Of a stretch of 64,000 bases of DNA, positions 10,443-35,991 are shown in pieces (within the stretch, counting starts at the first letter, position 1; every line of letters begins with the position of its first letter). Origin of the DNA: a virus; IMG/VR virus record IMGVR_UViG_3300043411_001170, positions 73,688 through 137,687 of that record; one strand, written 5' to 3'. Below the pieces are notes generated by a model, which was not told the origin of the DNA, did no database searches, and saw only the letters and a program-made list of their open reading frames with translations. A program made the translations under genes and the position numbers.

Positions 10443-12251
10443 ATGGCTGTAGATTTATCGAATATAATGCTCAACATTGGTAGAGCAAGTAAATTTCAAA
10501 CACAACGATATACTATAATTGACTATATAGAGTCTGCTTGGGGTTTAGGCCGTACATTATTCCCTGTACAAAAAGCGATATTAAAAGCTTTTTATGGTCT
10601 TCCCTTGGAAAAAGTACAAAAGAATATACAAATCAGAACGTGGAGAGGGGAAGTAATAAGAAATGTAACTGAGATTGATTATTTTAAAATGCTCTATGAC
10701 GAGAGAAGATGTAATATAGAACATTTTGAGGAAGGAAAAGAAAGAAATCGTTTGATTCTGTCCATTGGTAGACGTTCAGGTAAGTCTACAATGGCATCTT
10801 GCATCATGTCTTATTCAGTGGACTATTTGTTGGGATTAGAAAATCCACAAAAATATTATGGATTGACAGATTCAAACGTTATTAAAGTTACAGCTGTTGC
10901 TACAGATAAAGATCAAGCTGCCATTCTATTTAAAGAAGCATCAGCCCACTTTGAATCCTGTCAGAGTTTTAGACCTTTTATAGCAAATGCTACTCAGAGC
11001 TTTGTTAACTTCCAAAGTCCAGAAGATATTAGGAAGTATGGATCTTATCAAGAAAATGGCGTAGGAAAGTCAACAATAGAAATCACTTTTAAATCCGCTG
11101 TTGCAAAGGGTTTACGTGGATCTGGTAACTTCGTTGTTGTATTAGATGAGATCGCACACTTTTCTGATAATTCAGGAACAGCATCTGGTCAAGCGGTTTA
11201 TGAAGCCGTCAGCTTTTCTCAAGCTGCTTTCACACCAAAAGTAGGTATAGAAGCAACTGGAGAACCTGAATATAAGATGGTTATGATTTCTTCTCCGTTA
11301 GGAAGAACGGGATTTTTCTTTGAACAATTTACATCAGGTTTCTCTGACGAATTTAAAAATGATACTTTATGTATTCAAGCACCTACTTGGGAAGTAAACC
11401 CTTCTGTTCCTACAACCTTCTTGGTTCAGAAATATAAAGAAGATCCCGTAGTCTTTATGACAGAATGCGGTGCTATATTTACAGATAAGACCCGTGGATT
11501 TATCTCAGACGATAAAGATCTCCATTTATGTATTGATGCAGCATTAAGACCTACATTTATGGGAAATGCAAGAAGAACTTATTTTTGTGGTATTGACTTA
11601 GCATTACAGAAAGACCCTTCAGCTATTTGTATCGGGCATCTTGAAGACGATCTTATTGTTGTTGACTTAGTAGAGAGTATCAAAGCAGGTGAAGGGGAAT
11701 ACGTAGATTTAGATAGATTGGAAGTAGATATAGTTGCTGATTGGGTTAAAGGAATATTAAAAAAATTCAGATTAAAGAAAGGTGTATTTGACTCTCACAT
11801 GGGGCCTCCGTTTGAAAAGGCTTTACATGATAGAGGACTGAGAGATTTGGAATGTAAACACTCTACACAAGCTTGGAACTCAGAAGTTTATAAGACATTT
11901 AAGCAGATGCTATTAGCTCGTAAGATTAAATTTTATAATTATCCCTTAAATGGACCACAAGAATTTTGTGACTATTTAACAGAAATAAAAGAACTACAAG
12001 AGACAAGAGTTTCTGAAAACGTAATTAAAGTAAGAGCACCTGAAATGCGTGGGAAACATGATGACCGTGCAGACGCTGTTGCTCGTATGGTATGGGTAGC
12101 ATCCGAATTTTATAAAGATGGAAATTTTACTTCAGGATTAACATCAGGAAACGACGCAAGAGTAGATAGAGGACTAGCCAATTACAGAAGGGGGGTAACT
12201 GGATTTGGAAGCTCTCCACTAAGACAAGTAAAGAAACCTTCCAGAAGGTAA
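10443..12251 (+). CDS. terL: Terminase large subunit
   Basis: LFPVQ adenine motif, Walker A IGRRSGKST, Walker B VVVLDE, motif III ISSP, RNase H-like nuclease GIDLA...FDSH...HDDRADA. Confidence 0.93.
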   Translation: MAVDLSNIMLNIGRASKFQTQRYTIIDYIESAWGLGRTLFPVQKAILKAFYGLPLEKVQKNIQIRTWRGEVIRNVTEIDYFKMLYDERRCNIEHFEEGKERNRLILSIGRRSGKSTMASCIMSYSVDYLLGLENPQKYYGLTDSNVIKVTAVATDKDQAAILFKEASAHFESCQSFRPFIANATQSFVNFQSPEDIRKYGSYQENGVGKSTIEITFKSAVAKGLRGSGNFVVVLDEIAHFSDNSGTASGQAVYEAVSFSQAAFTPKVGIEATGEPEYKMVMISSPLGRTGFFFEQFTSGFSDEFKNDTLCIQAPTWEVNPSVPTTFLVQKYKEDPVVFMTECGAIFTDKTRGFISDDKDLHLCIDAALRPTFMGNARRTYFCGIDLALQKDPSAICIGHLEDDLIVVDLVESIKAGEGEYVDLDRLEVDIVADWVKGILKKFRLKKGVFDSHMGPPFEKALHDRGLRDLECKHSTQAWNSEVYKTFKQMLLARKIKFYNYPLNGPQEFCDYLTEIKELQETRVSENVIKVRAPEMRGKHDDRADAVARMVWVASEFYKDGNFTSGLTSGNDARVDRGLANYRRGVTGFGSSPLRQVKKPSRR

Positions 12252-13001: not shown

Positions 13002-14807
13002 ATGACAGTTTTACCTACAGGAACAGCGGGAGAAAGCAAGGTAGTTGCAACTATTAACGGTATAAGTAAAACTGCCAATACTAATGGTGTAGCTGGATCT
13101 GTTAGGGTAGGGAAGCCTGATAAAATATTAGAATCGAAGATGCATTCTAAATTTGCAACCATAGGAGCAGGTGGAGGAGGAAGTGGTTATGGTGGTATGT
13201 ATGGTGCTGGATTCGGAAATTTATCAGGATCAGTGTCTTGGGGTAATGCAATTAATCCATATAGCCCAGAACTATCTACTGACTTTTTAGAATTACCAAA
13301 CTCTCAGCAAGAATTAAGAAATACTTGTAGATTTTTCTACGATAATGATGCCATTGTCGGACAAGCCATTGACTCCTTAACTGATATACCTCTCTTAAAG
13401 GTAAGAGTAGGGATGCCAGAGGCTTTAAATGTAGAATTAGCGCGCAAAGCTATGAGATTTTGCGAGCGGTGGGTAAGATCCCAAAATTTATTAGAAAAAT
13501 TAATTTGGATATTACACGAAATTAACTTATTCGGTGAAGCTTTTATTTGGGTAGAAGATTCAGATAAAGAACTACCTCAAGATTTACTTTACGAAGAGAT
13601 TGAAGAAATTCGTGAAAACGGTGAAAAAGTAACAATTAGGAATTTAAAGAATAACGCCAACGAGCTTCACGTTTCTTGGTTAAGAAAAAATTATAAGGGA
13701 TGGACTAATCTTACTGTATTACCTCCTCACCAAGTAAGAATGGAATCTTTTCCTTTTACGAGAAGAAGTCAGTTTGAATTTATTCCTGACTCAAAAGCAA
13801 GAAATGTAGTGTCATTAGCTGAAAGCGGAGATACTTATGCCTCCAGAGTAGTTAATGATATGCCGAGAGAAATAGTAGAGTCCATAAGAAGTGGTAGGAA
13901 CATACCTCTCAATACAGACCCTGATGCTGGGTCTTTCTGCTTTTATATGGCAAGAAAAAGAAGTGCCTATGCAGAAAGAGGAAAGTCAATAATCCAAAGA
14001 ATTATTCGTCCTCTTACACATAGAGACAAATTAAGACAGGCTCAAGCATCTATTGCTTCAAGACATATGACTCCTATGCGTGTTATTCAAGCAGAAGGAG
14101 CAAGTGATGCTGACTTAGATGTATTGAGAGAACACGTAGATCATGCTTTGTCTGATCCCGATTTTACAATTATTGTAAACTATGTAATAAATTGGGAGGA
14201 AATGAATTCAAATGGAAGACTCCTAGATTTGGATTCTGAATATACGATGGCAGAAAGGCAGATGTACATTGGTCTGGGTGTTACTGAGTCTTTATTAAAT
14301 GGAGAATCTTCTTATCAAGAAAATAGTCTGTCCACACAATTATTATCTGCTAAATTTATGCATGTTCGGATGATGCTACAACACTTTGTAGAGCAGTATA
14401 TCTTTCGTCCTATGTGTGCTCGTATGGGATTTATTGAAGAAGATGAGGATGGACAAGAACATATTATCACACCAACACTTATGTTTAATCGTATGACTTG
14501 GAGAGATTCTCCTGATACAGCACAACAATTAATCACGTTATTTGAACGTGGTGCAGTAGATATTGACACCATACATGAATATTTCAATCTCGATACTCAA
14601 ACAACGGTAGAGAGAATGAATAATAATATGTATACAATAAAAGATCCGTTCTTAGCTGAAGCATTGAGATCAATGGCATCTTCTATTGGATCTGTCATGG
14701 CCGAAAAGACAAATGCTTTGGATAAATACTCTAAAGCAGCCCTATTGTCTATTCTTGCTGATAGCGTAGATCCACGATTTGCCCCACCACCGGGCGGCGG
14801 TCTATAA
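13002..14807 (+). CDS. Portal protein
   Basis: 601 aa between TerL and protease; portal-like segments 'FFYDNDAIVGQAID', 'EINLFGEAFIW', 'RGKSII', 'GLGVTESLLNGE'. Confidence 0.8.
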   Translation: MTVLPTGTAGESKVVATINGISKTANTNGVAGSVRVGKPDKILESKMHSKFATIGAGGGGSGYGGMYGAGFGNLSGSVSWGNAINPYSPELSTDFLELPNSQQELRNTCRFFYDNDAIVGQAIDSLTDIPLLKVRVGMPEALNVELARKAMRFCERWVRSQNLLEKLIWILHEINLFGEAFIWVEDSDKELPQDLLYEEIEEIRENGEKVTIRNLKNNANELHVSWLRKNYKGWTNLTVLPPHQVRMESFPFTRRSQFEFIPDSKARNVVSLAESGDTYASRVVNDMPREIVESIRSGRNIPLNTDPDAGSFCFYMARKRSAYAERGKSIIQRIIRPLTHRDKLRQAQASIASRHMTPMRVIQAEGASDADLDVLREHVDHALSDPDFTIIVNYVINWEEMNSNGRLLDLDSEYTMAERQMYIGLGVTESLLNGESSYQENSLSTQLLSAKFMHVRMMLQHFVEQYIFRPMCARMGFIEEDEDGQEHIITPTLMFNRMTWRDSPDTAQQLITLFERGAVDIDTIHEYFNLDTQTTVERMNNNMYTIKDPFLAEALRSMASSIGSVMAEKTNALDKYSKAALLSILADSVDPRFAPPPGGGL

Positions 14808-14897: not shown

Positions 14898-16325
14898 ATG
14901 ATTATTAAAAGAGCTAGAGCGAAGGGGTTTTCGCCCGACGTACAAATAAAAAAATGGTCAGGAATCCCAAATGTAAAAACAGCTTCTGTTTCTACGAAGG
15001 ATATTACTAGACAAGCCTCTGAGATTTTAAATGATTACTGTGATCCAGAGAATTATTTATTCTCGCACGTCACTGTAGTCTGTTCTGTAGATACTAATCC
15101 TATGGATGTTCAGATTGGCCCCAATGTCGTAAATGAAGGGCTAGTTATAAATCGTAAGTATAAAGAATACGATATCCAAGCTAACTGTCAGAAATTTATA
15201 AATAATAATAAAGATGCATGGGAACGAGATCTCCTATTACAATGCTATAAAACATTCGTTGGTGCCCATAATTTCTGCGAGCACCTGCAAATTGAAGAAC
15301 AAAGCAAGGGTAAAATCGTAGATGCAGTAGCCAGAGATATCGGTGAAAGTGTTTATGTAGATATTTTAATTGCTACAGCGAAAAAACATACAGAACTTAT
15401 TAAAGCTATCAAAGAAAGAAGAATTAATGCTGTCTCTATGGGATGCTCTGTATTAGAGACACAGTGTACAAAGTGTGGAAATACATCTCCTGATGAAGCC
15501 CATATGTGCCGACACATCACAATGATGAAAGGCCAGAAGTTTGAGGGTCCAGATGGAAAGGAGAGAATGATAGCTGAACTGTGTGGAAATAAGGCTATGG
15601 AGCCACATGGGGGAGTTAGATTTATAGAAGCATCTTGGGTAAAGGTTCCTGCATTTAAGGGTGCAGTTCTTCGTAATATTATAGATCTGTCAGAAATTAA
15701 TGGAGACAGATTAAAGAAAGTAGCATCTGATTTAAAAATGTTGAAAAATCCGACATGGAATCCCGCAGATACTTCTAGAATTGTTAACTCATTAGTTTTG
15801 AATGGTATGATGAAATTAGCAGCAGCAGAGGATGAAGGTTTTTCACCTGCACAAACAGAAATTTCGGATGGTGAAGAAAATCCATTGGAATCATTAGAAA
15901 GAGAAATGATGAAGGTCGTTATTAAGAATGTAAAGTCAAAATTAATGGATGTTTTAAGTCCTCCAAAAGATACAAATTATTCTACTCTCGTCACTCCAAT
16001 GGGGAGTAATAATAATATCGTAAGAGTAGGATCTGAGATAGATGAATTAGAGTCATTGTATAATTCTGGATTATCAGCCATCACAAATTTATGCAAAACA
16101 AATAAATCTAGAATCAGATACTCTAAAATCTACAATGACTATTTCGGAATACATATTCCAAAATGGATTTATGTTGCTTGTAATAAGCTGGGACCGTTAG
16201 TTCGTTATACAAGTCCTATGTCATATATCTCAGTATGCGAAAAAGTATTAAATAGGAGACTATCAATAGATGAAATTGATGCCCTGTTAAAAATATCGTC
16301 TATTCTTCGGGAAGACATCTATTAA
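14898..16325 (+). CDS. Prohead (capsid maturation) protease with inserted Cys/His cluster
   Basis: Follows portal; NNNKDAW...NFCEH...KGKIVDA...VSMG...FIEASWVKVPA matches the assemblin/HK97-type protease layout; CTKC...CRH...C insert. Confidence 0.7.
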   Translation: MIIKRARAKGFSPDVQIKKWSGIPNVKTASVSTKDITRQASEILNDYCDPENYLFSHVTVVCSVDTNPMDVQIGPNVVNEGLVINRKYKEYDIQANCQKFINNNKDAWERDLLLQCYKTFVGAHNFCEHLQIEEQSKGKIVDAVARDIGESVYVDILIATAKKHTELIKAIKERRINAVSMGCSVLETQCTKCGNTSPDEAHMCRHITMMKGQKFEGPDGKERMIAELCGNKAMEPHGGVRFIEASWVKVPAFKGAVLRNIIDLSEINGDRLKKVASDLKMLKNPTWNPADTSRIVNSLVLNGMMKLAAAEDEGFSPAQTEISDGEENPLESLEREMMKVVIKNVKSKLMDVLSPPKDTNYSTLVTPMGSNNNIVRVGSEIDELESLYNSGLSAITNLCKTNKSRIRYSKIYNDYFGIHIPKWIYVACNKLGPLVRYTSPMSYISVCEKVLNRRLSIDEIDALLKISSILREDIY

Positions 16326-16406: not shown

Positions 16407-17648
16407 ATGTCGAATCCTAAGTTAGTCGCAATTCTAAAAAGAGCAGCTTTTTTGCACAAGGCTGCCAAGAGCATTTTAGGTGGTGATTCCGCAGAGAGAG
16501 ATGAAGTTAAGGATCTTGCTTATCGTCTATGGGAAGTTCCTAATGTTAAAATTGCATCTCTTGTAAAGAAAGCTTCTGAAATTAACGCAGAGGATTATGA
16601 AGATGAGGACGAAGATGAAGAAGCCTGTGGCTTGATGGCATCGGATGACGAGGATGAGGATTTCTTTGCCTCTGATGATGAAGATGATGACATGTTTGCA
16701 GGTGATGACAGTGAAGAGGATTGTGAAGATGATGAAGAAGACTGTGAGGACGATGAAGATACGGAAGCACTTGATGTTTATTCTATGCTAGACGAATTGG
16801 AAAATATGGATGAAGACGAACTATGTGCTTTATTGGAAGAAGAATTAGAGGCAGGTGATGACCGTTGTGCATCTGATGATGAAGATGAAGAGGATGATGA
16901 GGAAGAAGATAGTGAAGACGAAGAAGAGGAAGAAGACGAGGATGATAGTGAAGAAGATGAAGAGGAAGTAGATGAAGAGGAAGTAGATGAGGAAGAGGTT
17001 GACGAAGAAGATGAAGAAGATGAAAGCTCTAAAGAAGCATCTGAAGAAGAGATTTTCTCAAGAATTAGCTCTGATGACAGAGATATTTTATCTTTTATGG
17101 ACCATGAAGATGTAGATGCTTTTGCAGAAGGTGAGCCTGATGAAGAGTTAGAACAGGCGTTAGCTTCTGGTTGTGGATCTAGAAATAAGAAAGCTTCCCA
17201 AGAAGATGATTTATTTTTCGATGAAGAACAATTAGAAAAGGATATTACGTCATCCATTTCTAAGAAAGCTTCTCAAGAGACAGCAGAAAATCAATTCCAC
17301 TTTGATAGTTCTTATGAAGGTCAAGATTTCTATGGTGCTGAAAGTAACTCCATGATTGATGACTTTTTAAATGGGGATTTAGAAACAAAGATGGAAGTTC
17401 GTTCTGCAATTAATAAATCAGCAAGTCAAAAAGATTATGTTGCCGAGTCTCCTATTACAATGGACGGTGTAGATGATCCTATGGCACCTATTGCTGTCAC
17501 TGAAAGACCTCGTGTTAAGAAAGCTAGTGCAGGTGCAAAAAGTTTAGGAACTGTATTCTCTGGTTCGTCCGAACAAGAAGAAATTAAAATGTTAGAGAAA
17601 CTATGGACCAAAAAACCTGATATTACCAAGCTAATCAATGGTGATTAA
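16407..17648 (+). CDS. Acidic scaffolding/core protein
   Basis: Extremely D/E-rich 413-aa protein between protease and capsid genes; many KxAS sites. Confidence 0.65.
   Translation: MSNPKLVAILKRAAFLHKAAKSILGGDSAERDEVKDLAYRLWEVPNVKIASLVKKASEINAEDYEDEDEDEEACGLMASDDEDEDFFASDDEDDDMFAGDDSEEDCEDDEEDCEDDEDTEALDVYSMLDELENMDEDELCALLEEELEAGDDRCASDDEDEEDDEEEDSEDEEEEEDEDDSEEDEEEVDEEEVDEEEVDEEDEEDESSKEASEEEIFSRISSDDRDILSFMDHEDVDAFAEGEPDEELEQALASGCGSRNKKASQEDDLFFDEEQLEKDITSSISKKASQETAENQFHFDSSYEGQDFYGAESNSMIDDFLNGDLETKMEVRSAINKSASQKDYVAESPITMDGVDDPMAPIAVTERPRVKKASAGAKSLGTVFSGSSEQEEIKMLEKLWTKKPDITKLINGD
16959..17003 (+). repeat. 15-bp tandem repeat x3 (EEEVD)
   Basis: gaagaggaagtagat twice, then gaggaagaggttgac. 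Confidence 0.8.
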
Positions 17649-17735: not shown

Positions 17736-17984
17736 ACACTTGGAAGCAAATATTTTTTGCAAAAACCCGAAAAAAGGCCATTTTTTCGTTTTATATTTTT
17801 TATAAAACATAAACAATAGAAGATTCAGTTTTGTATTTTATAATATAAAACCAAAACAAGGATCAGGTCAATACTTTTTGAATAATAATATTAATTTGGT
17901 TCTACTGATTTTCTGCATAAACAATGGGCACGGGTTGCCTGGACAGTGTAGAAATGAAAGTTTTATCATATTAGAGGTTAAAAA

Positions 17985-18671
17985 ATGCCAGCACCAGGAA
18001 ATGCAAGTGGTAACTTCACCGAAGGCTCATCTGCCCTTCGCGTTCTCTATAAGGGAACAATCAATACTGCAAGTGCAACTTTAAGCACAGATGGTTTTAC
18101 ACAAACAAATCCTCCAGTCGTAACAACTACTTCCACCATCTCCCAAGCTGCGATGATGAATCGTAATCGTCTTGGTGTATTGGGTGGTTCGGTTTGCTTT
18201 GCTCGTCCTGATGCAGGAAACGGCTTAGTAGGCGGTCCAAAAGAAGGTGCATCTCCTGTGTATCTTCGTTCGGGTATCGTCCCCCTTGGTCTTTTCGTGA
18301 ATGATGCAGTAGGCGTTCCCTACGAAAACCGTCCTGCGGTTGCATCAGGTCAAGCACCCTATACCTCTTCGATGGGTACATACGGTTCTCGTTTATACGA
18401 GACTCAAGTACTCGATGCAACAAACGTAGCTGGTCACTCAACTGGTGACGCTATTGTTTATGTTGCTGGTGTAGGCTTGATTGCTTCTCGTAACGGTTAT
18501 TTGATGCCTCGTTTGATTCCAAACGGTGCCAACATGACCTCTCTCGACCAAGTTGAAACTGCTGCACAGTCTGCAAATCTTGCTGCTGCAAACAGTTCAA
18601 CTGTGATCGGTATCCTCAAACTTGTTGCTGACTCTGCATTTGCAGAAATCCTCTTGGACCAACGTATCTAA
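17985..18671 (+). CDS. Capsid decoration/cement protein
   Basis: 228 aa directly upstream of MCP; 'PLGLFVNDAVG..YEN..AVASG..PY' decoration-like pattern; same high-expression codon bias as MCP. Confidence 0.65.
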   Translation: MPAPGNASGNFTEGSSALRVLYKGTINTASATLSTDGFTQTNPPVVTTTSTISQAAMMNRNRLGVLGGSVCFARPDAGNGLVGGPKEGASPVYLRSGIVPLGLFVNDAVGVPYENRPAVASGQAPYTSSMGTYGSRLYETQVLDATNVAGHSTGDAIVYVAGVGLIASRNGYLMPRLIPNGANMTSLDQVETAAQSANLAAANSSTVIGILKLVADSAFAEILLDQRI

Positions 18672-18748
18672 TTAATTGTGATTAGAACATTTAACCAAGT
18701 AAACTAGTTATAAAGCAACTTAAAGAGATATAAGAGGTAAATATAGTC

Positions 18749-19630
18749 ATGGCACCAAATAATATCAGTACAGCATCAAAAGATCGTCTCCTCGGAGAAT
18801 ATCTTTACACTTCTCAGGGTCGTCAAAAAGTCGCTCAAAGCATGGGCACTTCTTTGCGTACCCAACGCGATTACACCTCCGTTGCACGTCGTGCCTTCTT
18901 AGTTGAGCAATTGCCTTCTGGTGCATTGCCCATCTACGACAAAGATCCCGATGTCACTGCCTATGTGGTTGGTGAAGAAGGCGATTCTATCGAAGCACGT
19001 GCCAAGAGCCGTCGTGTTCACTTCCCCATCTTTGAGATCGCAAGCGTTCCCGAAGTTTCGCTCTCTCAAGTACAAGAAAGACGTTATGACATCATCGAAA
19101 GATGCCAAACTCTTGCTGTAAGTGAGATCCAAGGAGCCGAAGACATTCGCGCTTTCGCAATCATGGACGCCATCGCCCTTCTTGGCTATGACTCCATTCC
19201 TGGTGGTGAAAACCCCGACATCCCCGTCGTTGCACCTATTAACGTATCGGTTCTTGCTGATGCGTTCGGTCAAATTGGCCGCTTTGAATTGAACGTCACC
19301 AATATCTTTATCAATCCTCGCGATTTTACAGATATTCGTAAGTTCGGTGAAGATTTCTTCTCTGACGAAATTCAGAGAGACATCGTTCGCTCTGGTCAAA
19401 TCGGTAGCATCTGGGGTGCCAAGGTTATCCAATCCCGTAAGGTTCCTGAAGGTACTTGCTATCTTACTTGCGAACCTGAGTTCTTTGGTCGTATCCCCGT
19501 CCGTACTGAATTGACAGTTATGGCCGCTGATACTCCTAAGTCCCGTATGGTTGGCTTCTCTTGCTTTGAAATGTTGGGAATCGGTGCTTACAACCCCCGT
19601 GGTTTAACCCGTATCACCATCAGCCGCTAA
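18749..19630 (+). CDS. Major capsid protein (compact HK97 fold)
   Basis: Position after protease, scaffold and decoration gene; HK97-like elements 'AYVVGEEG', 'IFINPRDFTDI', 'GSIWGAKVIQSRKVPEG', 'GAYNPRGL'; strongest codon bias in the window; strong terminator downstream. Confidence 0.85.
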   Translation: MAPNNISTASKDRLLGEYLYTSQGRQKVAQSMGTSLRTQRDYTSVARRAFLVEQLPSGALPIYDKDPDVTAYVVGEEGDSIEARAKSRRVHFPIFEIASVPEVSLSQVQERRYDIIERCQTLAVSEIQGAEDIRAFAIMDAIALLGYDSIPGGENPDIPVVAPINVSVLADAFGQIGRFELNVTNIFINPRDFTDIRKFGEDFFSDEIQRDIVRSGQIGSIWGAKVIQSRKVPEGTCYLTCEPEFFGRIPVRTELTVMAADTPKSRMVGFSCFEMLGIGAYNPRGLTRITISR

Positions 19631-19640
19631 TTCGTTGTAG

Positions 19641-19662
19641 CCTAGAATCTCAAGATTCTAGG
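19641..19662 (+). other. Hairpin directly 3' of MCP
   Basis: CCTAGAATCT-CA-AGATTCTAGG. Confidence 0.6.
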
Positions 19663-19705
19663 ATACTAAATCTAGCAGATAGATAGTCAAATACGAAGAG
19701 TTTAA

Positions 19706-19748
19706 AAAATACCGAAGATTCCGAAAGGATCTTCGGTATTTTATTTTT
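19706..19748 (+). terminator. Intrinsic terminator after MCP
   Basis: AAAATACCGAAGAT(T)CC-GAAA-GGATCTTCGGTATTTT, GNRA loop, T tail. Confidence 0.85.
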
Positions 19749-19794
19749 GGCGTCCTGAAAAGGATATAAACCAAAAATAAAAGGGAACCATATT

Positions 19795-20391
19795 ATGACT
19801 ACTGTAGAATTTCAGAAATTTGCACTGCGATTAGGAAAAACTGTAAACGAGTATCTTGATCAATTTCCTCTTAGAAGTTGGTTCTCGAAAAGAGAATTAA
19901 CGAGAAAAGACTACTTGGAAATAACCTATACTGAAAAAGTTCCATTATCAAGACTTATTGATAATAAATTGGAAAATGGGGGGACCGTTAATATGGATTT
20001 GTTTTATCAACAAATCACAGAAGAAGTTTGCAATCAGATCGTGACTGATGAGTTACATTATTTAAAGTCTAAATTTGAACAAATTGCATCGAAAACAACA
20101 CGAAAGAAACTCGCAGAGATATCTGATTTTTCTAAATACTATATTTTAGCAGGGAACGACGAAAGTATCCATAAATTCGGAGTATTAGATCAGAAATTCC
20201 ATATTTATTATGGATTACCTACAGAATCTATTTATTTGATCCCAACTGAGAATACAGGAGTATTGGAAATTCAGTCATTGTGTTCTACTTATAGTCCAGA
20301 ACCTGCTAAGAGGACTATGTGCTTTACATCTTACGAATTTGTTAATCTTATCTTAGAAAATCCAGAAGAAATAATCTGTCTATCTATTTAG
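19795..20391 (+). CDS. Truncated divergent paralog of the major capsid protein
   Basis: Colinear by-eye similarity to the MCP N-helix, the 'EIxxxxxVxLS' strand and the whole C-terminal strand set (see findings). Confidence 0.55.
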   Translation: MTTVEFQKFALRLGKTVNEYLDQFPLRSWFSKRELTRKDYLEITYTEKVPLSRLIDNKLENGGTVNMDLFYQQITEEVCNQIVTDELHYLKSKFEQIASKTTRKKLAEISDFSKYYILAGNDESIHKFGVLDQKFHIYYGLPTESIYLIPTENTGVLEIQSLCSTYSPEPAKRTMCFTSYEFVNLILENPEEIICLSI

Positions 20392-20446
20392 TTTTTTGAT
20401 AGGGTAATTTTTCCCCTATCTGGGTTTACAATATTTGTTCTGTGAT

Positions 20447-20484
20447 AAGACGTTGGATTTTAAAATCCAACGTCTTTTATTTTT
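20447..20484 (+). terminator. Terminator built on a perfect 30-bp palindrome
   Basis: AAGACGTTGGATTTT|AAAATCCAACGTCTT (20447-20476) followed by TTATTTTT. Confidence 0.7.
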
Positions 20485-20583
20485 GTATAAAAGAATTTTC
20501 GGCTGTATAGTTTATTTAACATAATAATTTTAGAATACATTTTTTAGTGTAGTTATCTGTAATTTTTTAGAGGTGAGATCTGT

Positions 20584-21357
20584 ATGCCGAACGAAGGAAA
20601 TTTTACAGCCTATGTCTGTGTGAAAGCTGTTTATGTCGGATTAAACGGTTCAAAATTGTCGAGAAAATTAAATATAGGAATGAAAGCTTTATTTGACGGG
20701 TCAACCGTTAAATTTCTTGATTCAGGTGGGGGTATGGCCCCCAATCAAAGTTGGGGTTACAATGCCGAATTCTTTTATCCTCAATTCCAATTAGCTATTG
20801 ATAATGGATTTTTCGTTGAGGATACTAATTATAAATATGAATTAGAAGTCTCTAAAAACAGTGTCATTACAGGTAAAAGATTAAAAAGACTAAACTTTAC
20901 AGGCACTGGAGTCTTTACTTCATTAGATCCTAATGACAATGAAATCGTAAATATTTCAATACCTGGAGGTGGAGGGGGTGGAGGTTCTGGAGATCAGATC
21001 GTAAGTCCAAGCGGATATTTTAATTGTACTATAGATGTATTAGTCGGTGATTTAGTATATATCGACGGACCAGATTCAGTAGAAGTCTCAGATAGAACAA
21101 TTATTAATACTACGCCGTGTGTAGGTATTGTAATAGATAAACCAGCAGCCACATCAGCAACTGTTCTATTTTCTGGTAGATGTGATATATTTGCTGGATT
21201 AAGTCCAGGATCTCAATACTATTTGGGACCATTTGGGGCATTAGCATCTTCTCCTCCTATAGAAAACGGTGAAGTTTTTCAGAAGATTGGGGTAGCTGTT
21301 AATACTACTACTCTATGGGTAATTATAGATCCACCAATAATAACAGAAAGCGTTTAA
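20584..21357 (+). CDS. Virion fibre-associated protein with C-terminal capsid-cement-like (DUF2190-type) domain
   Basis: Gly linker then 'VLVGDLVYI...CVGIV...ATVLFSG...GLSPGSQYYLG..G.L...QKIGVA'. Confidence 0.55.
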   Translation: MPNEGNFTAYVCVKAVYVGLNGSKLSRKLNIGMKALFDGSTVKFLDSGGGMAPNQSWGYNAEFFYPQFQLAIDNGFFVEDTNYKYELEVSKNSVITGKRLKRLNFTGTGVFTSLDPNDNEIVNISIPGGGGGGGSGDQIVSPSGYFNCTIDVLVGDLVYIDGPDSVEVSDRTIINTTPCVGIVIDKPAATSATVLFSGRCDIFAGLSPGSQYYLGPFGALASSPPIENGEVFQKIGVAVNTTTLWVIIDPPIITESV

Positions 21358-21875: not shown

Positions 21876-23696
21876 ATGGCTATTCCATTAAAATTAGACT
21901 CAACTACTTTAAAGCAAAGACAATTCACCACTACAGATGATTTACAGATTGATGATATAATCAGGCGTGCAGGCTCTGGTAATATGACTATCGGTGGCAA
22001 CTTAGGTGCCGCCGAAGAACTTCAATTAGGTTCTGCAACATCTGATGTTCGTATTTTAGGAGATCTTATTGTAGATGGTTCTTCAACAATATCAGTTGAC
22101 GAAACTGTAGTTGGTACATTTACTGTAGAAGGCGATGTTAATCTAGGTGACGGTACAGGAGATACCATTAATTTAGGCGGTGGAACTTCTGATATTGTAA
22201 ATTTGGAAGCAGACTTAGTTTTAGGAGCAGGTATTGTTGGAATTGGTTCTTCTGTTACCGATTATCTATCAGATTTATGGCTAATAGCTGTAAATAATAA
22301 TGGACCTAATAATGATGCCTATAATTTAAGAGCTTCTGGAGCAAACGCTGGTGCTTATTCTATTGGTGTTGATCCTACAGGGTTGACTTATATCACAGCT
22401 ACGGATTTGCAAACGGCTCTTGAGGAATTAGATGCAGGAATTTCTGCATCGTCTAGCACTTTGCAACAAGCCTATGTTGCTGGAAATACAATCTCTGTAA
22501 CAACAGCCGAAGGTGCAATTCAATTTAGTAATACTACTGATGCCACAAACGTTTTAGAACTTAGTAAGTCTGGAGCATTTGGAGGTAACGTTCTTAACGT
22601 TTCAAATGCAGCGGCTTCTACAGGTGTCCTAGCATTTTTTAACAATGTAGGAACTGGAAGCGCCTTGCAAATTCAAGATGCAGGAGCAGACGTTCTTGTT
22701 ATCAGTGCTGCTGGTGCAATTACAGCAACTCCTACATCTGGACAGAATTTGGTCGGAACCGTAGCAGGTGCTGGGGTTATTGATCTAAATACAGGTGCTG
22801 GTGGAGTTACGGTTGATGCCACTGGTGGCGGAATTTCATTGGATGCAGGAGCAGCATCAAATTTCACAACTTCTGCTGGTGCTCTAGTTTTAGAGTCTAC
22901 AGCCGCTGATGTAGACATTAACGCTGGAACAGCCGTTACTATTGATGCTGCTGGTACAATTTCGTTAGATGCAGGTGCTTCTTCAAATTTCACAACGACT
23001 GTTGGAAACATTGTGCTTAATGCTGCTGCCATTATGGATATCGATGGTGGATCAGCAGTTAACATTGATGCTGTTACAGGCATGTCTCTTGATGCAGGAG
23101 CAGCATCTAATTTCAGCACATCAGCAGGAAATCTTACTTTTGATGCTGCTGCCGCAGAGTTAGTTTTTGACGATCAAGGTAATTCTGGAACGACTTTATC
23201 TCAAAATCTTGATCGTGTATTTGACGAAACTGGTGCAGGGGAAGTATTAAACGGAGCAACATCTCTTTTAGGTGCTATCAATAGATTGGCAAGAAGAGTT
23301 AGTGTTGCTAATCTATTAGAAGTAGAGCTACCTATTGAAAATACTATCACCATTGCAGCAGGAAATTGTGTAGCTGCTTCTACTGTTACAGGAAGAGTTA
23401 CAAACGCAACTTCTGCTGTTGGTGGGAATTTTAGATTTATCGGGATTTGTACGATTGGCGGAACAGGTAACGTTGGTGGAACTAATCTCGCTAGATTTGC
23501 TGTGTCTGGATATATCACAGATTCAGGTGCTGCGTTTACGGCAGGTGCAGCCCTTTATGTACCAGAAACAGCAGGTCGTCCAGTTGTGCAAGCAACTTTG
23601 ACTCTTGACGAAGGAGATATGGCAAAACAAATTGCATATGCCATATCTGGTACTACTTATGTATTGGGTCACGGTCTGCCTGAAACAATTATCTAA
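21876..23696 (+). CDS. Fibre protein with beta-helix-type repeats and C-terminal cement-like domain
   Basis: G/A/T-rich 606 aa; SLDAGAxSNFxT repeats; C-terminal 'IAAGNCVA...FIGIC...AVSG...FTAGAALYV...QIAYAIS'. Confidence 0.65.
   Translation: MAIPLKLDSTTLKQRQFTTTDDLQIDDIIRRAGSGNMTIGGNLGAAEELQLGSATSDVRILGDLIVDGSSTISVDETVVGTFTVEGDVNLGDGTGDTINLGGGTSDIVNLEADLVLGAGIVGIGSSVTDYLSDLWLIAVNNNGPNNDAYNLRASGANAGAYSIGVDPTGLTYITATDLQTALEELDAGISASSSTLQQAYVAGNTISVTTAEGAIQFSNTTDATNVLELSKSGAFGGNVLNVSNAAASTGVLAFFNNVGTGSALQIQDAGADVLVISAAGAITATPTSGQNLVGTVAGAGVIDLNTGAGGVTVDATGGGISLDAGAASNFTTSAGALVLESTAADVDINAGTAVTIDAAGTISLDAGASSNFTTTVGNIVLNAAAIMDIDGGSAVNIDAVTGMSLDAGAASNFSTSAGNLTFDAAAAELVFDDQGNSGTTLSQNLDRVFDETGAGEVLNGATSLLGAINRLARRVSVANLLEVELPIENTITIAAGNCVAASTVTGRVTNATSAVGGNFRFIGICTIGGTGNVGGTNLARFAVSGYITDSGAAFTAGAALYVPETAGRPVVQATLTLDEGDMAKQIAYAISGTTYVLGHGLPETII
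22830..23135 (+). repeat. Three ~41-42 aa intragenic repeats (xISLDAGAASNFTTxxGxxxx)
   Basis: SLDAGA starts at 22836, 22962 and 23085 (spacing 126 and 123 nt). Confidence 0.8.
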
Positions 23697-23767: not shown

Positions 23768-24322
23768 ATGAAAAAACCTGTAAAATATAAATTTGGTTCT
23801 AAACTGAAGACACCTGTAAAATCTAGTGTTGTTTTAAAGTCTGTTAATTTATCCAAAGAAACAAAACCTGATAAAACCACAAAATATATTGATGAACCTA
23901 TAGAAATAGTAGATTTAGAAATAGACAAAGAAACACATGAAAGCAGTAATAGTATAATTGACTATGACCCATCTATTAATTGGGACGAACCATTTAAATT
24001 AGAAATTGATGATCTGGATAAATATAAAATATTAGCCCTAGCATCAAAAGAACAGAAAGAAAGGGATTTAATATCCGTTCCCATCATTAATAAATATAAA
24101 GAATTACTAAAAATAGAGTTGGATAAGGCATTATCGAATTGTCCATCTTTTATAAAAGCCAGGGAACAAAAAGATCAAGCTATAAAAGACTTTTTAATAA
24201 AGAGCTATAAAGATCTACCTAAAACCGTATTTGTATCCCGTTTATTTTTGGAAGAAGGATATGCAGAATGTGTCAATAATGAAGAAGAATCTGAAAAAGT
24301 TAGATTATTAATTGGGGTATAA
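23768..24322 (+). CDS. Hypothetical protein (possible fibre chaperone)
   Basis: Charged 184-aa protein between two fibre genes. Confidence 0.55.
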   Translation: MKKPVKYKFGSKLKTPVKSSVVLKSVNLSKETKPDKTTKYIDEPIEIVDLEIDKETHESSNSIIDYDPSINWDEPFKLEIDDLDKYKILALASKEQKERDLISVPIINKYKELLKIELDKALSNCPSFIKAREQKDQAIKDFLIKSYKDLPKTVFVSRLFLEEGYAECVNNEEESEKVRLLIGV

Positions 24323-34044: not shown

Positions 34045-34719
34045 ATGCCTACTTTAACACAGACCGCACACGTTCACATGAAAAGAACCGATATCCCAAA
34101 TAAGGTTCTTCAATTAACTGACTTGTTTCCTCACACCTCTCTAAGCAACACTGTAAACCTTCCTCCTGGCCAAACTCGTTATCTCAAGAGAGCATCGACA
34201 GTTTGGAGTACCGTAGCCACAAGTGGTGCCAATCCTATCGTTACTGTAAATGCTTATCAAGGATTGGCTGCCTATCTTCTTGATAATATCGAAGCTGGTG
34301 GTGGCACTTTGGCATTTACGGCTGCTCAAGCAAATGCAGCAGCAACAGCATTGTTAGCGATTGCTGATGCAGGAACTGCTCTTACCCTTACAACAATCAA
34401 TGCTGCTTTGGCAGTTGTAGTTGCAGCAACCACACTAACAACAAACGGATCTACAGGTACAGTTTTGGAAGTCCTACAGATTATTGGTGGACGTATCTAC
34501 ACTGTTCCTGCCGCTGCTGTTATTGAAGCTGCTGGTGCAAAGTCTACCAGAAAAGGATCTTTTGACGACACCTATTTCAAGCCTCTCGTTCGTGGTGGCG
34601 TTTTTGAAGATTCTTTGTTATCTGGACAAGTATCTAAATTGAAGTTAGCTACTTTTAGATACAAGAATACAAATGGTGCTGCTATCGTTGTTTATGACGA
34701 CGAAGGTAATGTCATTTAA
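34045..34719 (+). CDS. Abundant virion structural protein, short paralog
   Basis: A/T/G-rich 224 aa; near-identical N- and C-termini to 34966..35991; high-expression codons. Confidence 0.7.
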   Translation: MPTLTQTAHVHMKRTDIPNKVLQLTDLFPHTSLSNTVNLPPGQTRYLKRASTVWSTVATSGANPIVTVNAYQGLAAYLLDNIEAGGGTLAFTAAQANAAATALLAIADAGTALTLTTINAALAVVVAATTLTTNGSTGTVLEVLQIIGGRIYTVPAAAVIEAAGAKSTRKGSFDDTYFKPLVRGGVFEDSLLSGQVSKLKLATFRYKNTNGAAIVVYDDEGNVI

Positions 34720-34965: not shown

Positions 34966-35991
34966 ATGCCTACTTTAACACAGACAGCCCACCTTCACGT
35001 CAAAAGAACAGATATTCCTGCTAAAGTTCTTCAATTAAATGATCTTTTCCCACACACTTCATTAAGTAACACTGTAAATCTCCCTCCCGGTCAAACACGT
35101 TACCTTAAAAGAGCGTCATCGGTTTGGAATACTGTAGCTACTACAGGTACAAACCCTATTATTACAGCCGCAGAGTATCAAGGTCTTGCAGCGTACCTAA
35201 TTGATAATTTAGTTTCTGGTGGCGGTACTTCTCCAGTACAAGCAACAGCTACAATTACTGTTACTGCTGTCCCTGTTGTTGGAACAATCACCATTGGAGG
35301 TGTTGTTTTAACAGCAGCCGCAGGAGCCAGAACTCCTGGAAATGATGACTTTGATGGTACTTTAGGAACTACAGATCTAGTGGCTGCTGAAATTGTAGCA
35401 GCTATTAATGATGTTGCAAACGGATTTGACGCTATTGTTACTGCCGCCGCAGTCGGAAGCATCGTTACTATTACAGCCGTTCCTATCGGTGTTCTCGGTA
35501 ATGCTATTACTTTAACTGAAACTTCTGGTCAAATCACAATTTCTGGTGCTTTATTGACAGGTGGCGTTAGCACAGGTACTGGAGCATTGACAGCAGCAAA
35601 TGCAAATGCAGCATCAGCAGCATTATTAGCGATTGCTGATGCAGGAACTGCCCTTACTTTATCTGCTGTAAATGCTGCTATTGCAGGTGTTGTAGCAGGT
35701 ACTTCTTTAACAGGTGGCGGATCTACTGGATCTCTACTAACCCTTCTTCAAGTCATTGGCGGTAGAATCTATACTGTTCCTTCACAGTCTATTATTGAGG
35801 CTGCCAGCGCAAAATCAACTGCTAAAGGAAGTTTGGATACTAGTTATTATAAACACACTGTTCGTGGCGGTGTTTTTGAAGCATCTTTACTTTACGGACA
35901 AGTATCCAAGTTAAAGTTATCTACTTTTAGATATAAGAATACAAATGGTGCAGCCCTTGTAGTATATGATGATGATGGCAATGTTATCTAA
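34966..35991 (+). CDS. Virion structural protein, long paralog with 117-aa inserted domain
   Basis: Paralog of 34045..34719 (341 vs 224 aa); insertion at about 35227-35580. Confidence 0.75.
   Translation: MPTLTQTAHLHVKRTDIPAKVLQLNDLFPHTSLSNTVNLPPGQTRYLKRASSVWNTVATTGTNPIITAAEYQGLAAYLIDNLVSGGGTSPVQATATITVTAVPVVGTITIGGVVLTAAAGARTPGNDDFDGTLGTTDLVAAEIVAAINDVANGFDAIVTAAAVGSIVTITAVPIGVLGNAITLTETSGQITISGALLTGGVSTGTGALTAANANAASAALLAIADAGTALTLSAVNAAIAGVVAGTSLTGGGSTGSLLTLLQVIGGRIYTVPSQSIIEAASAKSTAKGSLDTSYYKHTVRGGVFEASLLYGQVSKLKLSTFRYKNTNGAALVVYDDDGNVI

Follow-up and report, generated by a model that had tools for sequence, protein, structure and literature searches.

A short open reading frame behind the capsid gene of a phage-G-like megaphage as a candidate low-copy derivative of the major capsid protein

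Introduction

Vertex proteins related to the major capsid protein (MCP) have been described in phages, and we compare with them an open reading frame (ORF) of 198 codons that follows the MCP gene in a 64,000-nucleotide stretch of viral DNA (IMG/VR record IMGVR_UViG_3300043411_001170, positions 73,688 to 137,687; the whole stretch is called the window below). The vertex protein (VP) of the Lactococcus phage Nocturne116 appears to be the closest published case. In the accessible text of the report on this phage (J Virol 2026, PMC13595954), VP is encoded by ORF19, which neighbours the MCP gene. At 220 aa it falls 54 residues short of the MCP domain, because its E-loop is much smaller, the tip of its A-domain shorter and its N-arm nearly absent; it is 24% identical to MCP, and was found by electron cryo-microscopy (cryo-EM) to form the 11 pentamers. 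Its counterparts in phages c2, GE1 and Q54 are described in the same text as 'barely detectable' by sequence, and T4 gp24 is given there as a vertex protein paralogous to the MCP gp23. A different use of an MCP copy is reported for the satellite SaPIbov5, whose MCP homologue Ccm occupies the pentamer positions and thereby alters assembly (Nat Commun 2021, PMC8569155, accessible text).

The ORF resembles the Nocturne116 VP in that its gene lies directly after the MCP gene, its product is short (198 aa compared with 220), the residues saved would belong to the E-loop and the A-domain, similarity to MCP is weak and divergence is fast. Several differences stand beside these likenesses. VP-like genes are reported in all the c2-like phages examined, whereas the ORF family is missing from three complete relatives. 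The VP pentamers were seen by cryo-EM and the protein is 24% identical to MCP, whereas the ORF is known here from its sequence and a model and aligns with MCP over its last 57 residues or fewer. Unlike VP, with almost no N-arm, the ORF product was modelled with a 21-residue N-terminal helix. Finally, Nocturne116 is a small prolate siphovirus, whereas the ORF comes from a megaphage.

T4 gp24 has the full size of an HK97 protein and bears both an E-loop and an insertion domain; it is conserved in T4-like phages and easily recognised by sequence, whereas the ORF is trimmed, sporadic and nearly unrecognisable. The traits of gp24 that we propose for the ORF are MCP paralogy, the HK97 fold, a gene next to that of MCP and low-copy use at the vertices. 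With Ccm there is a known case of an MCP copy that modulates assembly. Unlike the ORF, Ccm is reported to be encoded by a phage parasite, to have the complete HK97 fold with an E-loop and to act against its helper, whereas the ORF lies in the phage's own head module. The sole family with a sequence-level link to the ORF is that of the window MCP and phage G gp27 (6wkk; hhalign P 5.3e-4). Compared with these proteins, the ORF product is 95 residues shorter, would lack a segment of E-loop length and about half of the A-domain, is missed by the MCP hidden Markov model (HMM) and is encoded without the high-expression codon bias.

Results and Discussion

An open reading frame directly downstream of the MCP gene

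The window covers the final 64 kb of a viral record of 137,687 bases, whose completeness was estimated by CheckV at 31%, so that the genome should measure roughly 440 kb; the source phage is an uncultured, phage-G-like megaphage. The two genes under study, and the part of the ORF that will be compared with MCP, are the following.

18749-19630, plus strand: MCP gene, 293 aa, with a phage-G-type HK97 fold, presumably the parent of the ORF (phrog_2522 'major head protein', 1.6e-43)
19795-20391, plus strand: the ORF, 198 aa, ATG to TAG, probably a shortened HK97-fold derivative of MCP
20215-20388, plus strand: codons 141-198 of the ORF, statistically similar to the MCP C-terminus (MCP 232-290) by hhalign and shuffles

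A preliminary description had placed a 198-aa ORF at 19795-20391, and this position proved correct: the ORF starts 164 nucleotides (nt) past the MCP stop codon, downstream on the same strand. The window MCP is 62% identical to that of LR745208 (an uncultured 485-kb phage), 44% to that of Tunturiibacter phage Tunturi_5 and 34% to gp27 of Bacillus phage G, and the MCP-family profile matched PDB 6wkk_A (phage G gp27) at 4e-123.

Similarity of the ORF product to the MCP C-terminus

Two profiles were compared with hhalign, one of the ORF family (four sequences) and one of the MCP family (25 sequences). ORF residues 141-197 were aligned with MCP residues 232-290 at P 5.3e-4 (probability 30.6%, score 32.2). 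Over variants of the comparison, the match covered 39-57 columns with a core at ORF 160-198, and it ran to the C-terminus of both proteins. The real score was not equalled by any of 755 column shuffles (178 whole-query, 420 C-terminus-only, 157 template), the highest shuffled scores being 20.4 for the whole query, 30.4 and 24.3 for the C-terminal sets and 21.8 for the template; reversal of the query or of the template gave 11.7 and 11.6. The C-terminal correspondence noticed by eye in the preliminary description was therefore confirmed by the profile match (P 5.3e-4, 0/755 shuffles). Leaving out one ORF-family sequence at a time left the register unchanged (P 6.2e-4 to 9.3e-4), as did the use of any one of the four members by itself (P 0.0076-0.028).

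The ORF-family profile was also compared with 60 plus-strand ORFs of at least 90 aa from four related loci. The best two were MCPs in the same register, those of Tunturi_5 (P 0.0015) and LR745208 (P 0.0054); the phage G MCP gave P 0.082, again in the same register, and the best non-MCP ORF gave 0.021 over 15 columns. As single sequences, which give low sensitivity, the 56 non-MCP ORFs of these loci had P of at least 0.063 with the MCP profile and at least 0.021 with the ORF-family profile.

Similarity to the HK97 superfamily was found for the C-terminal 39-57 residues only, and by profile-profile comparison only. The family HMMs of PF05065 (Phage_capsid) and of the phrog_2522 type were unmatched by all four ORF-family members, and a PDB sequence search with the ORF-family profile gave 0 matches at E<=10. 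No C-terminal 'handle' shared with other proteins of the contig was found among 596 frames of at least 50 aa. Two sub-threshold matches, to RasGAP_C (Pfam, E 0.017) and to phrog_26237 (E 5.5e-4), each appeared in one of the four family members and were attributed to chance.

Predicted fold of the ORF product

An AlphaFold2 (AF2) model was computed from six sequences, with no template and no MCP sequence. Its mean predicted local distance difference test score (pLDDT) was 55.7 and its predicted template modelling score (pTM) 0.49. The elements modelled were the following.

Helices of the ORF product (AF2): residues 3-23, 51-59, 67-100
Strands of the ORF product (AF2): residues 47-50, 115-119, 145-150, 156-169, 174-186, 194-197

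The most conspicuous elements were a 34-residue helix (67-100) and a long hairpin (156-169/174-186); residues 24-46 were poorly defined and residues 120-142 had pLDDT below 50. Two other models were of no help: a first AF2 run with three near-identical sequences was unusable (pLDDT 36.6), and the ESM Atlas model (pLDDT 0.40) gave no usable feature match, with template modelling scores (TM) of at most 0.35.

When the model was searched against PDB with Foldseek, the best match was the capsid of jumbo phage S6 (E 1.1e-2, probability 0.90), and the 33 matches listed comprised 28 capsid or encapsulin chains, one engineered nanocage and four unrelated chains. In BFVD the best match was a Clostridium phage MCP (E 8.3e-4, probability 0.98), 22 of the 50 matches listed were named capsid or head proteins, and phage G Gp27 came at rank 8 (60 columns, 25% identity, root-mean-square deviation (rmsd) 3.1). 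The fifth-best BFVD match was an uncharacterised 164-aa protein of the jumbo Pseudomonas phage Noxifer, A0A1Y0SXS9 (E 1.1e-2, TM by target 0.40, 180 columns), which could be another small capsid-like protein.

A search of 48,161 chains that did not depend on Foldseek gave 14 rows with more than 104 aligned residues, all of them capsid or encapsulin, among them PfV (Z 5.0, 151 aligned, rmsd 5.3). Re-ranking of the Foldseek list, which remains dependent on Foldseek, placed phi29 MCP at Z 6.1 (161 aligned, rmsd 5.5), with 49 of 50 rows capsid or encapsulin and the other an engineered nanocage. The best values were Z 5.0-6.1 and rmsd 5.3-5.6. T4 gp24 (1yue_A; Z 3.6, 161 aligned, rmsd 5.0) and Ccm (7rwz; Z 4.1, 142 aligned) were also among the structural matches. 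Since every Z lies below the caution line of 8, an HK97 fold for the ORF product is probable on the model, short of established. The preliminary description had named the lack of any significant profile or structural alignment to this fold as grounds to reject the idea, and such a lack was not observed (hhalign P 5.3e-4; Foldseek best E 8.3e-4).

The model also suggests which parts of the MCP may have been lost. Only 17 residues (24-40) separate the N-terminal helix from the P-domain-type strand, compared with about 48 in MCP, and no hairpin was modelled there, at pLDDT below 50. A complete A-domain has a central sheet with a helix on either side; here three short strands were modelled (115-119, 145-150, 194-197), and residues 120-142 among them have pLDDT below 50. 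Judged by the model and by eye, the ORF product may keep two helices (N-terminal and spine), the strand and the hairpin of the P-domain, a minimal A-domain sheet and the last strand, with an A-domain some 45 residues shorter than that of MCP, about half of it being gone. The preliminary description had proposed an MCP descendant without E-loop and with a trimmed A-domain. This proposal gained moderate support from the C-terminal profile match and the AF2 model, while its mapping of the N-terminal part found no statistical support.

Distribution and rate of change of the ORF family

Among 1.84 billion representative proteins, matches at E<=0.001 were limited to P0002, P0005, P0006, P0007 and the doubtful P0008; word-based searches added P0001. 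Four members are full-length (198-211 aa): the window ORF, P0001 (82% identical to it), P0005 (48%) and P0006 (33%). They share 48 invariant columns, which include an invariant nine-residue C-terminal motif. No match was obtained by tblastn in 50,697 phage records, and a search for related loci with the ORF family in viral and metagenome contigs gave no relative. The same search with the 89%-identical MCP P0010 found a single distant locus, L005, among viral contigs and nothing among metagenome contigs. The ORF family may be conserved within a narrow sub-clade.

The slot after the MCP gene is filled in three relatives by unrelated genes that differ from one to the next: gp28 of 310 aa in phage G (L001 6967-7899), gp335, a 263-aa low-complexity protein, in Tunturi_5 (L002 7060-7851), and a 1,229-aa ORF in LR745208 (L003 7077-10766). 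The site downstream of the MCP terminator has the appearance of a hotspot of accessory cargo.

A second strain was found in a wastewater run of another study (X2), in a 56,134-nt contig of depth 11.6 that spans 17900-20700. It differs from the window by 24 substitutions and five indels, and is roughly 99% identical. Runs X3 and X4 gave small pieces only. The changes in X2 relative to the window were distributed as follows.

MCP gene: 0 non-synonymous, 4 synonymous
228-aa gene before MCP: 1 non-synonymous, 2 synonymous
ORF: 4 non-synonymous, 2 synonymous, loss of one G
19978-19983, plus strand: run of six G inside the ORF, one base missing in X2, which splits the ORF

The missing G accounts for two fragment proteins, P0007 (82 aa) and P0002 (132 aa; longest contig 56,134 nt). 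As the loss falls in a homopolymer and was seen in one contig, it may reflect an assembly error. Independently of X2, P0005 (48% identical to the ORF) and the MCP P0010 (89% identical to the window MCP) seem to lie on one 70,307-base contig, judging from equal sizes; if so, the ORF diverges several times faster than MCP. Together with the X2 counts, which are small (six substitutions in the ORF and four in MCP), this suggests that the ORF evolves much faster than MCP.

Flanking hairpins and expression signals

The intergenic stretches on either side of the ORF fold far better than shuffled sequences (z -6.7 and -4.7). Three hairpins were located.

19637-19666, plus strand: stem-loop directly 3' of the MCP stop codon, from the RNA fold of 19628-19800
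19706-19742, plus strand: T1, intrinsic-terminator-like hairpin in the gap between MCP and ORF, a 16-pair stem followed by a T-run
20447-20476, plus strand: T2, intrinsic-terminator-like hairpin 3' of the ORF, a 13-pair stem followed by a T-run

The fold of 19628-19800 had a minimum free energy of -51.8 kcal/mol (z -6.72), equalled by none of 200 shuffles, and a comparable stem-loop was seen in the loose end of a relative's contig (run X4). Between 17500 and 22000 we counted nine terminator-like sites compared with 2.6 +/- 1.7 in shuffles, and T1 and T2 are two of the strongest hairpins of this kind in the region. The ORF lies between two terminator-like hairpins, in agreement with the preliminary description. 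That text was also right in seeing no high-expression codon bias. The GC content of the ORF is 0.318 (0.261 at third codon positions, GC3) compared with 0.480 for MCP, whose GC3 of 0.435 is the highest in the window, and the codon usage of the ORF is typical of 47 other tabulated window genes. The AGAGGT-type ribosome-binding motif of the neighbouring head genes is missing upstream of the ORF.

A third claim, that the ORF forms its own transcription unit, gained no support. Only 52 nt separate T1 from the ATG, and no sigma-70-like site was found upstream of the ORF on the plus strand. The only k-mers common to 18 intergenic regions were A/T-rich words and the ribosome-binding motif. Transcription of the ORF could be explained by partial read-through of the MCP terminator as well as by a promoter of its own. 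In an RNA-library run (X8), contigs covered MCP 19125-19485 only and none lay over the ORF, a result that is uninformative either way.

A low-copy shell subunit as the favoured reading

Two independent lines, the C-terminal profile match to the neighbouring MCP family and the template-free AF2 model whose long matches are HK97 proteins only, lead us to conclude that the ORF probably descends from the phage's own HK97-fold MCP. Neither line is strong by itself (probability 30.6% for the first; pLDDT 55.7, Z <=6.1 and best Foldseek E 8.3e-4 for the second). As to function, the preliminary description had suggested a vertex protein, an assembly modulator or a decoy for capsid-sensing defences; we tentatively favour an MCP-derived, low-copy subunit of the shell, with a vertex protein as its likeliest form. 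The ORF product would be a small, lineage-restricted and fast-evolving descendant of MCP. At the sequence level it would have kept the C-terminal P-domain hairpin and the last A-domain strand, and according to the model the N-terminal helix, a P-domain strand and the 34-residue spine helix as well. Of the E-loop, a stub of about 17 residues would remain, and roughly 45 residues of the A-domain would be gone.

With the strong terminator of MCP before it, no codon bias and a weak ribosome-binding site, the ORF would be expressed late and at a low level. Such signals would fit about 55 copies compared with thousands of MCP copies, a ratio that we derive from the T=52 shell presumed for phage G. 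The P-domain, the part preserved best, contacts neighbouring capsomers in HK97 shells, and the ORF product might dock against the MCP hexamers through its own MCP-like P-domain. The likeliest site would be the pentameric vertices, as for the Nocturne116 VP and T4 gp24. A dedicated shell subunit of low copy number would agree with the position of the gene, the size of its product, the parts lost, the weak similarity and the signs of low expression.

If the ORF encodes a vertex protein, two specialised HK97 proteins would make up the very large head of a megaphage of roughly 440 kb. Penton proteins of this dedicated kind would extend past the T4-like and c2-like phages, which bears on how the curvature and size of huge capsids are controlled. 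Whether it is a vertex protein or a mimic of MCP, the ORF would show that orphan genes beside capsid genes can hide capsid paralogues, which annotation by BLAST, Pfam, PHROGs and HMMER misses entirely.

A number of results weigh against this reading, several of them against MCP descent itself. BLASTP of the ORF against MCP gave E 5.6, no capsid family was returned for any of the four ORF-family members by Pfam (E<=1) or PHROGs (E<=10), and the MCP-family HMM recovered MCP alone from the 137.7-kb contig at E<=10. The hhalign probability was only 30.6%, over 39-57 columns, and one C-terminal shuffle came to 30.4. With single-sequence templates from 65 window ORFs, MCP (P 0.031) stood second among the non-self matches, behind a 12-column match in the ORF at 23768-24322. 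Three N-terminal correspondences had been proposed in the preliminary description, and none rose above chance. The best local match between ORF 1-140 and MCP 1-231 (ORF 41-56 with MCP 95-110) coincided with one of the proposed correspondences but was equalled by 80 of 172 shuffles, and when the N-terminal 140 columns were shuffled, the extended and the global alignment were equalled by 62 and 66 of 89 shuffles, respectively. As regards the fold, the model has pLDDT 55.7 and pTM 0.49, no Z exceeds 6.1 where caution is advised below 8, and the top row of the 48,161-chain search was an unrelated helical chain (Z 5.1, 81 aligned).

A last group of results concerns the role rather than the descent. 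Lineage-wide conservation, as would be expected of a vertex protein, was not found: a profile of the ORF family at E<=10 gave no match in phage G, Tunturi_5 or LR745208, whose genomes are complete, which speaks against a vertex protein that the phage needs. In X2 the ORF carries four non-synonymous changes and a one-base deletion compared with no non-synonymous change in MCP, and the pair P0005/P0010 would point in the same direction.

Other explanations

The results just listed at the level of sequence and fold could also mean that the ORF is unrelated to MCP. It would then encode an orphan accessory protein, whose C-terminal beta-hairpin is alike by chance or convergence and whose AF2 model drifted to a common viral fold. 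The signal-free residues 1-140, the useless first AF2 and ESM Atlas models and the low Z-scores would all agree with this. We consider it doubtful, as two independent kinds of evidence give the same fold and the match was to the neighbouring gene, in one comparison stated in advance and not picked as the best of a database. None of the 755 shuffles equalled its score, the register is the same in each of the four members (33-82% identity) and in the MCPs of three relatives, and the match ends at both C-termini.

A further possibility, to which we give similarly low credence, accepts the MCP origin but assigns the ORF a non-structural role. As an optional, moron-like accessory gene, it would mimic part of the MCP surface and either titrate or block a host sensor of the MCP core fold, or poison the capsid assembly of competitors. 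The distribution suits such a gene: the family is patchy, with four full-length members among 1.84 billion representatives and none in three complete relatives, and the post-MCP-terminator slot of the relatives holds unrelated cargo. The terminators that flank the ORF, its ordinary codon usage and its weak ribosome-binding site could be expected of it as well. So could the prevalence of amino-acid-changing substitutions and a possible frameshift in one strain, where the MCP changes are synonymous only, but the counts are tiny (six and four) and the frameshift was seen in one contig, within a homopolymer. True vertex proteins are also reported to diverge fast (PMC13595954, accessible text), and a location directly after the MCP gene matches that of known vertex-protein genes.

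The literature offers partial parallels for a mimic. Binding to MCP core folds is reported for Avs7, Avs8 and Avs10 (PMC13581612), and a satellite is reported to use the MCP homologue Ccm to redirect helper capsids (PMC8569155). A description of a phage-encoded MCP decoy was not returned by our literature searches in the texts accessible to us, the word 'decoy' in PMC13581612 being a mass-spectrometry term.

Tunturi_5 carries another small ORF that appears to derive from MCP. Its gp172 (L010/L011, PP885688.1 122430-122723, minus strand) is a 97-aa hypothetical protein encoded among replication genes, and it matched positions 85-113 of the MCP profile at E 3.6e-8, which corresponds to a copy of about 29 residues of a P-domain strand segment. 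Its N-terminus resembles what we take to be a twin-arginine signal. An MCP-profile search of phage G and LR745208 returned their MCP only, and no copy of the gp172 type was seen.

In its fullest form this alternative would make the ORF an optional, fast-diversifying mimic of the MCP core, which blinds or mis-triggers sensors of the HK97 fold (Avs7/8/10-type or CapRel-type) or sabotages the capsids of competitors. With gp172, it would stand for an undescribed class of capsid-derived conflict genes. We judge this specific version unlikely; if true, it would be the first example of a capsid-derived counter-defence or interference gene.

It is improbable that the ORF is the decaying leftover of an MCP duplication without present function. 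An excess of non-synonymous changes with a one-base deletion in one strain would suit decay, and no RNA cover was obtained over the ORF in one run, but the frame is intact at 198-211 aa in four members down to 33% identity. These intact frames and the 48 invariant columns with their nine-residue C-terminal motif lead us to expect selection on the ORF.

We can practically set aside the idea that ORF residues ~123-167 form one DUF6923-type repeat unit, as in the 546-aa protein P0008, and are not capsid-derived: P0008 was the fifth library match (E 8.9e-4, in five stretches), was found by BLASTP with the window ORF (E 9e-6) and with P0005 (7e-4), and matches Pfam DUF6923 (PF21959) at 1.4e-9, but what they share is a strand-turn-strand motif of 15-17 residues (ORF ~145-160), with five near-identical repeats added up in the library score. 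With P0006, the most divergent member, P0008 gave E 1.9. We treated the likeness as chance: the Pfam model matches none of the four members at E<=1, and the motif is not part of the core of the MCP match (ORF 160-198).

Other genes of the window

The head module upstream of MCP comprises the following genes.

10443-12251, plus strand: large terminase (phrog_2, 2.6e-24)
13002-14807, plus strand: portal (phrog_16240, 3.6e-25)
14898-16325, plus strand: protease-like protein (phrog_18299, 1.8e-10)
16407-17648, plus strand: very acidic 413-aa protein, mostly Asp/Glu runs
17985-18671, plus strand: 228-aa protein, directly before MCP

The 413-aa acidic protein, encoded between the protease-like gene and the head genes, had no family match in Pfam or PHROGs and is presumably a scaffold or internal head protein. 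The 228-aa gene has the second-highest GC content (0.47; GC3 0.319) and codon bias in the window, and a homologue of equal length lies in the same place in LR745208. Phage G has gp26 in this slot, which we take to be a decoration protein (its GenBank record carries a 'capsid decoration' note). BLASTP detected no similarity between the 228-aa protein and gp26 (E 0.53), and the 228-aa product is probably a decoration or cement protein of another family.

Further downstream, the genes at 34045-34719 and 34966-35991 have raised GC contents (0.43 and 0.42) and a codon usage close to that of MCP (index 0.68 and 0.64), and a long structured intergenic region precedes each. They had no PHROG match at 1e-5 and probably encode other abundant virion proteins, for example a tail tube or sheath. 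A 606-aa protein encoded at 21876-23696, for which PHROGs gave no match, contains several tandem units of about 35 residues rich in Ala, Gly, Ser and Thr, which give it a fibre-like look.

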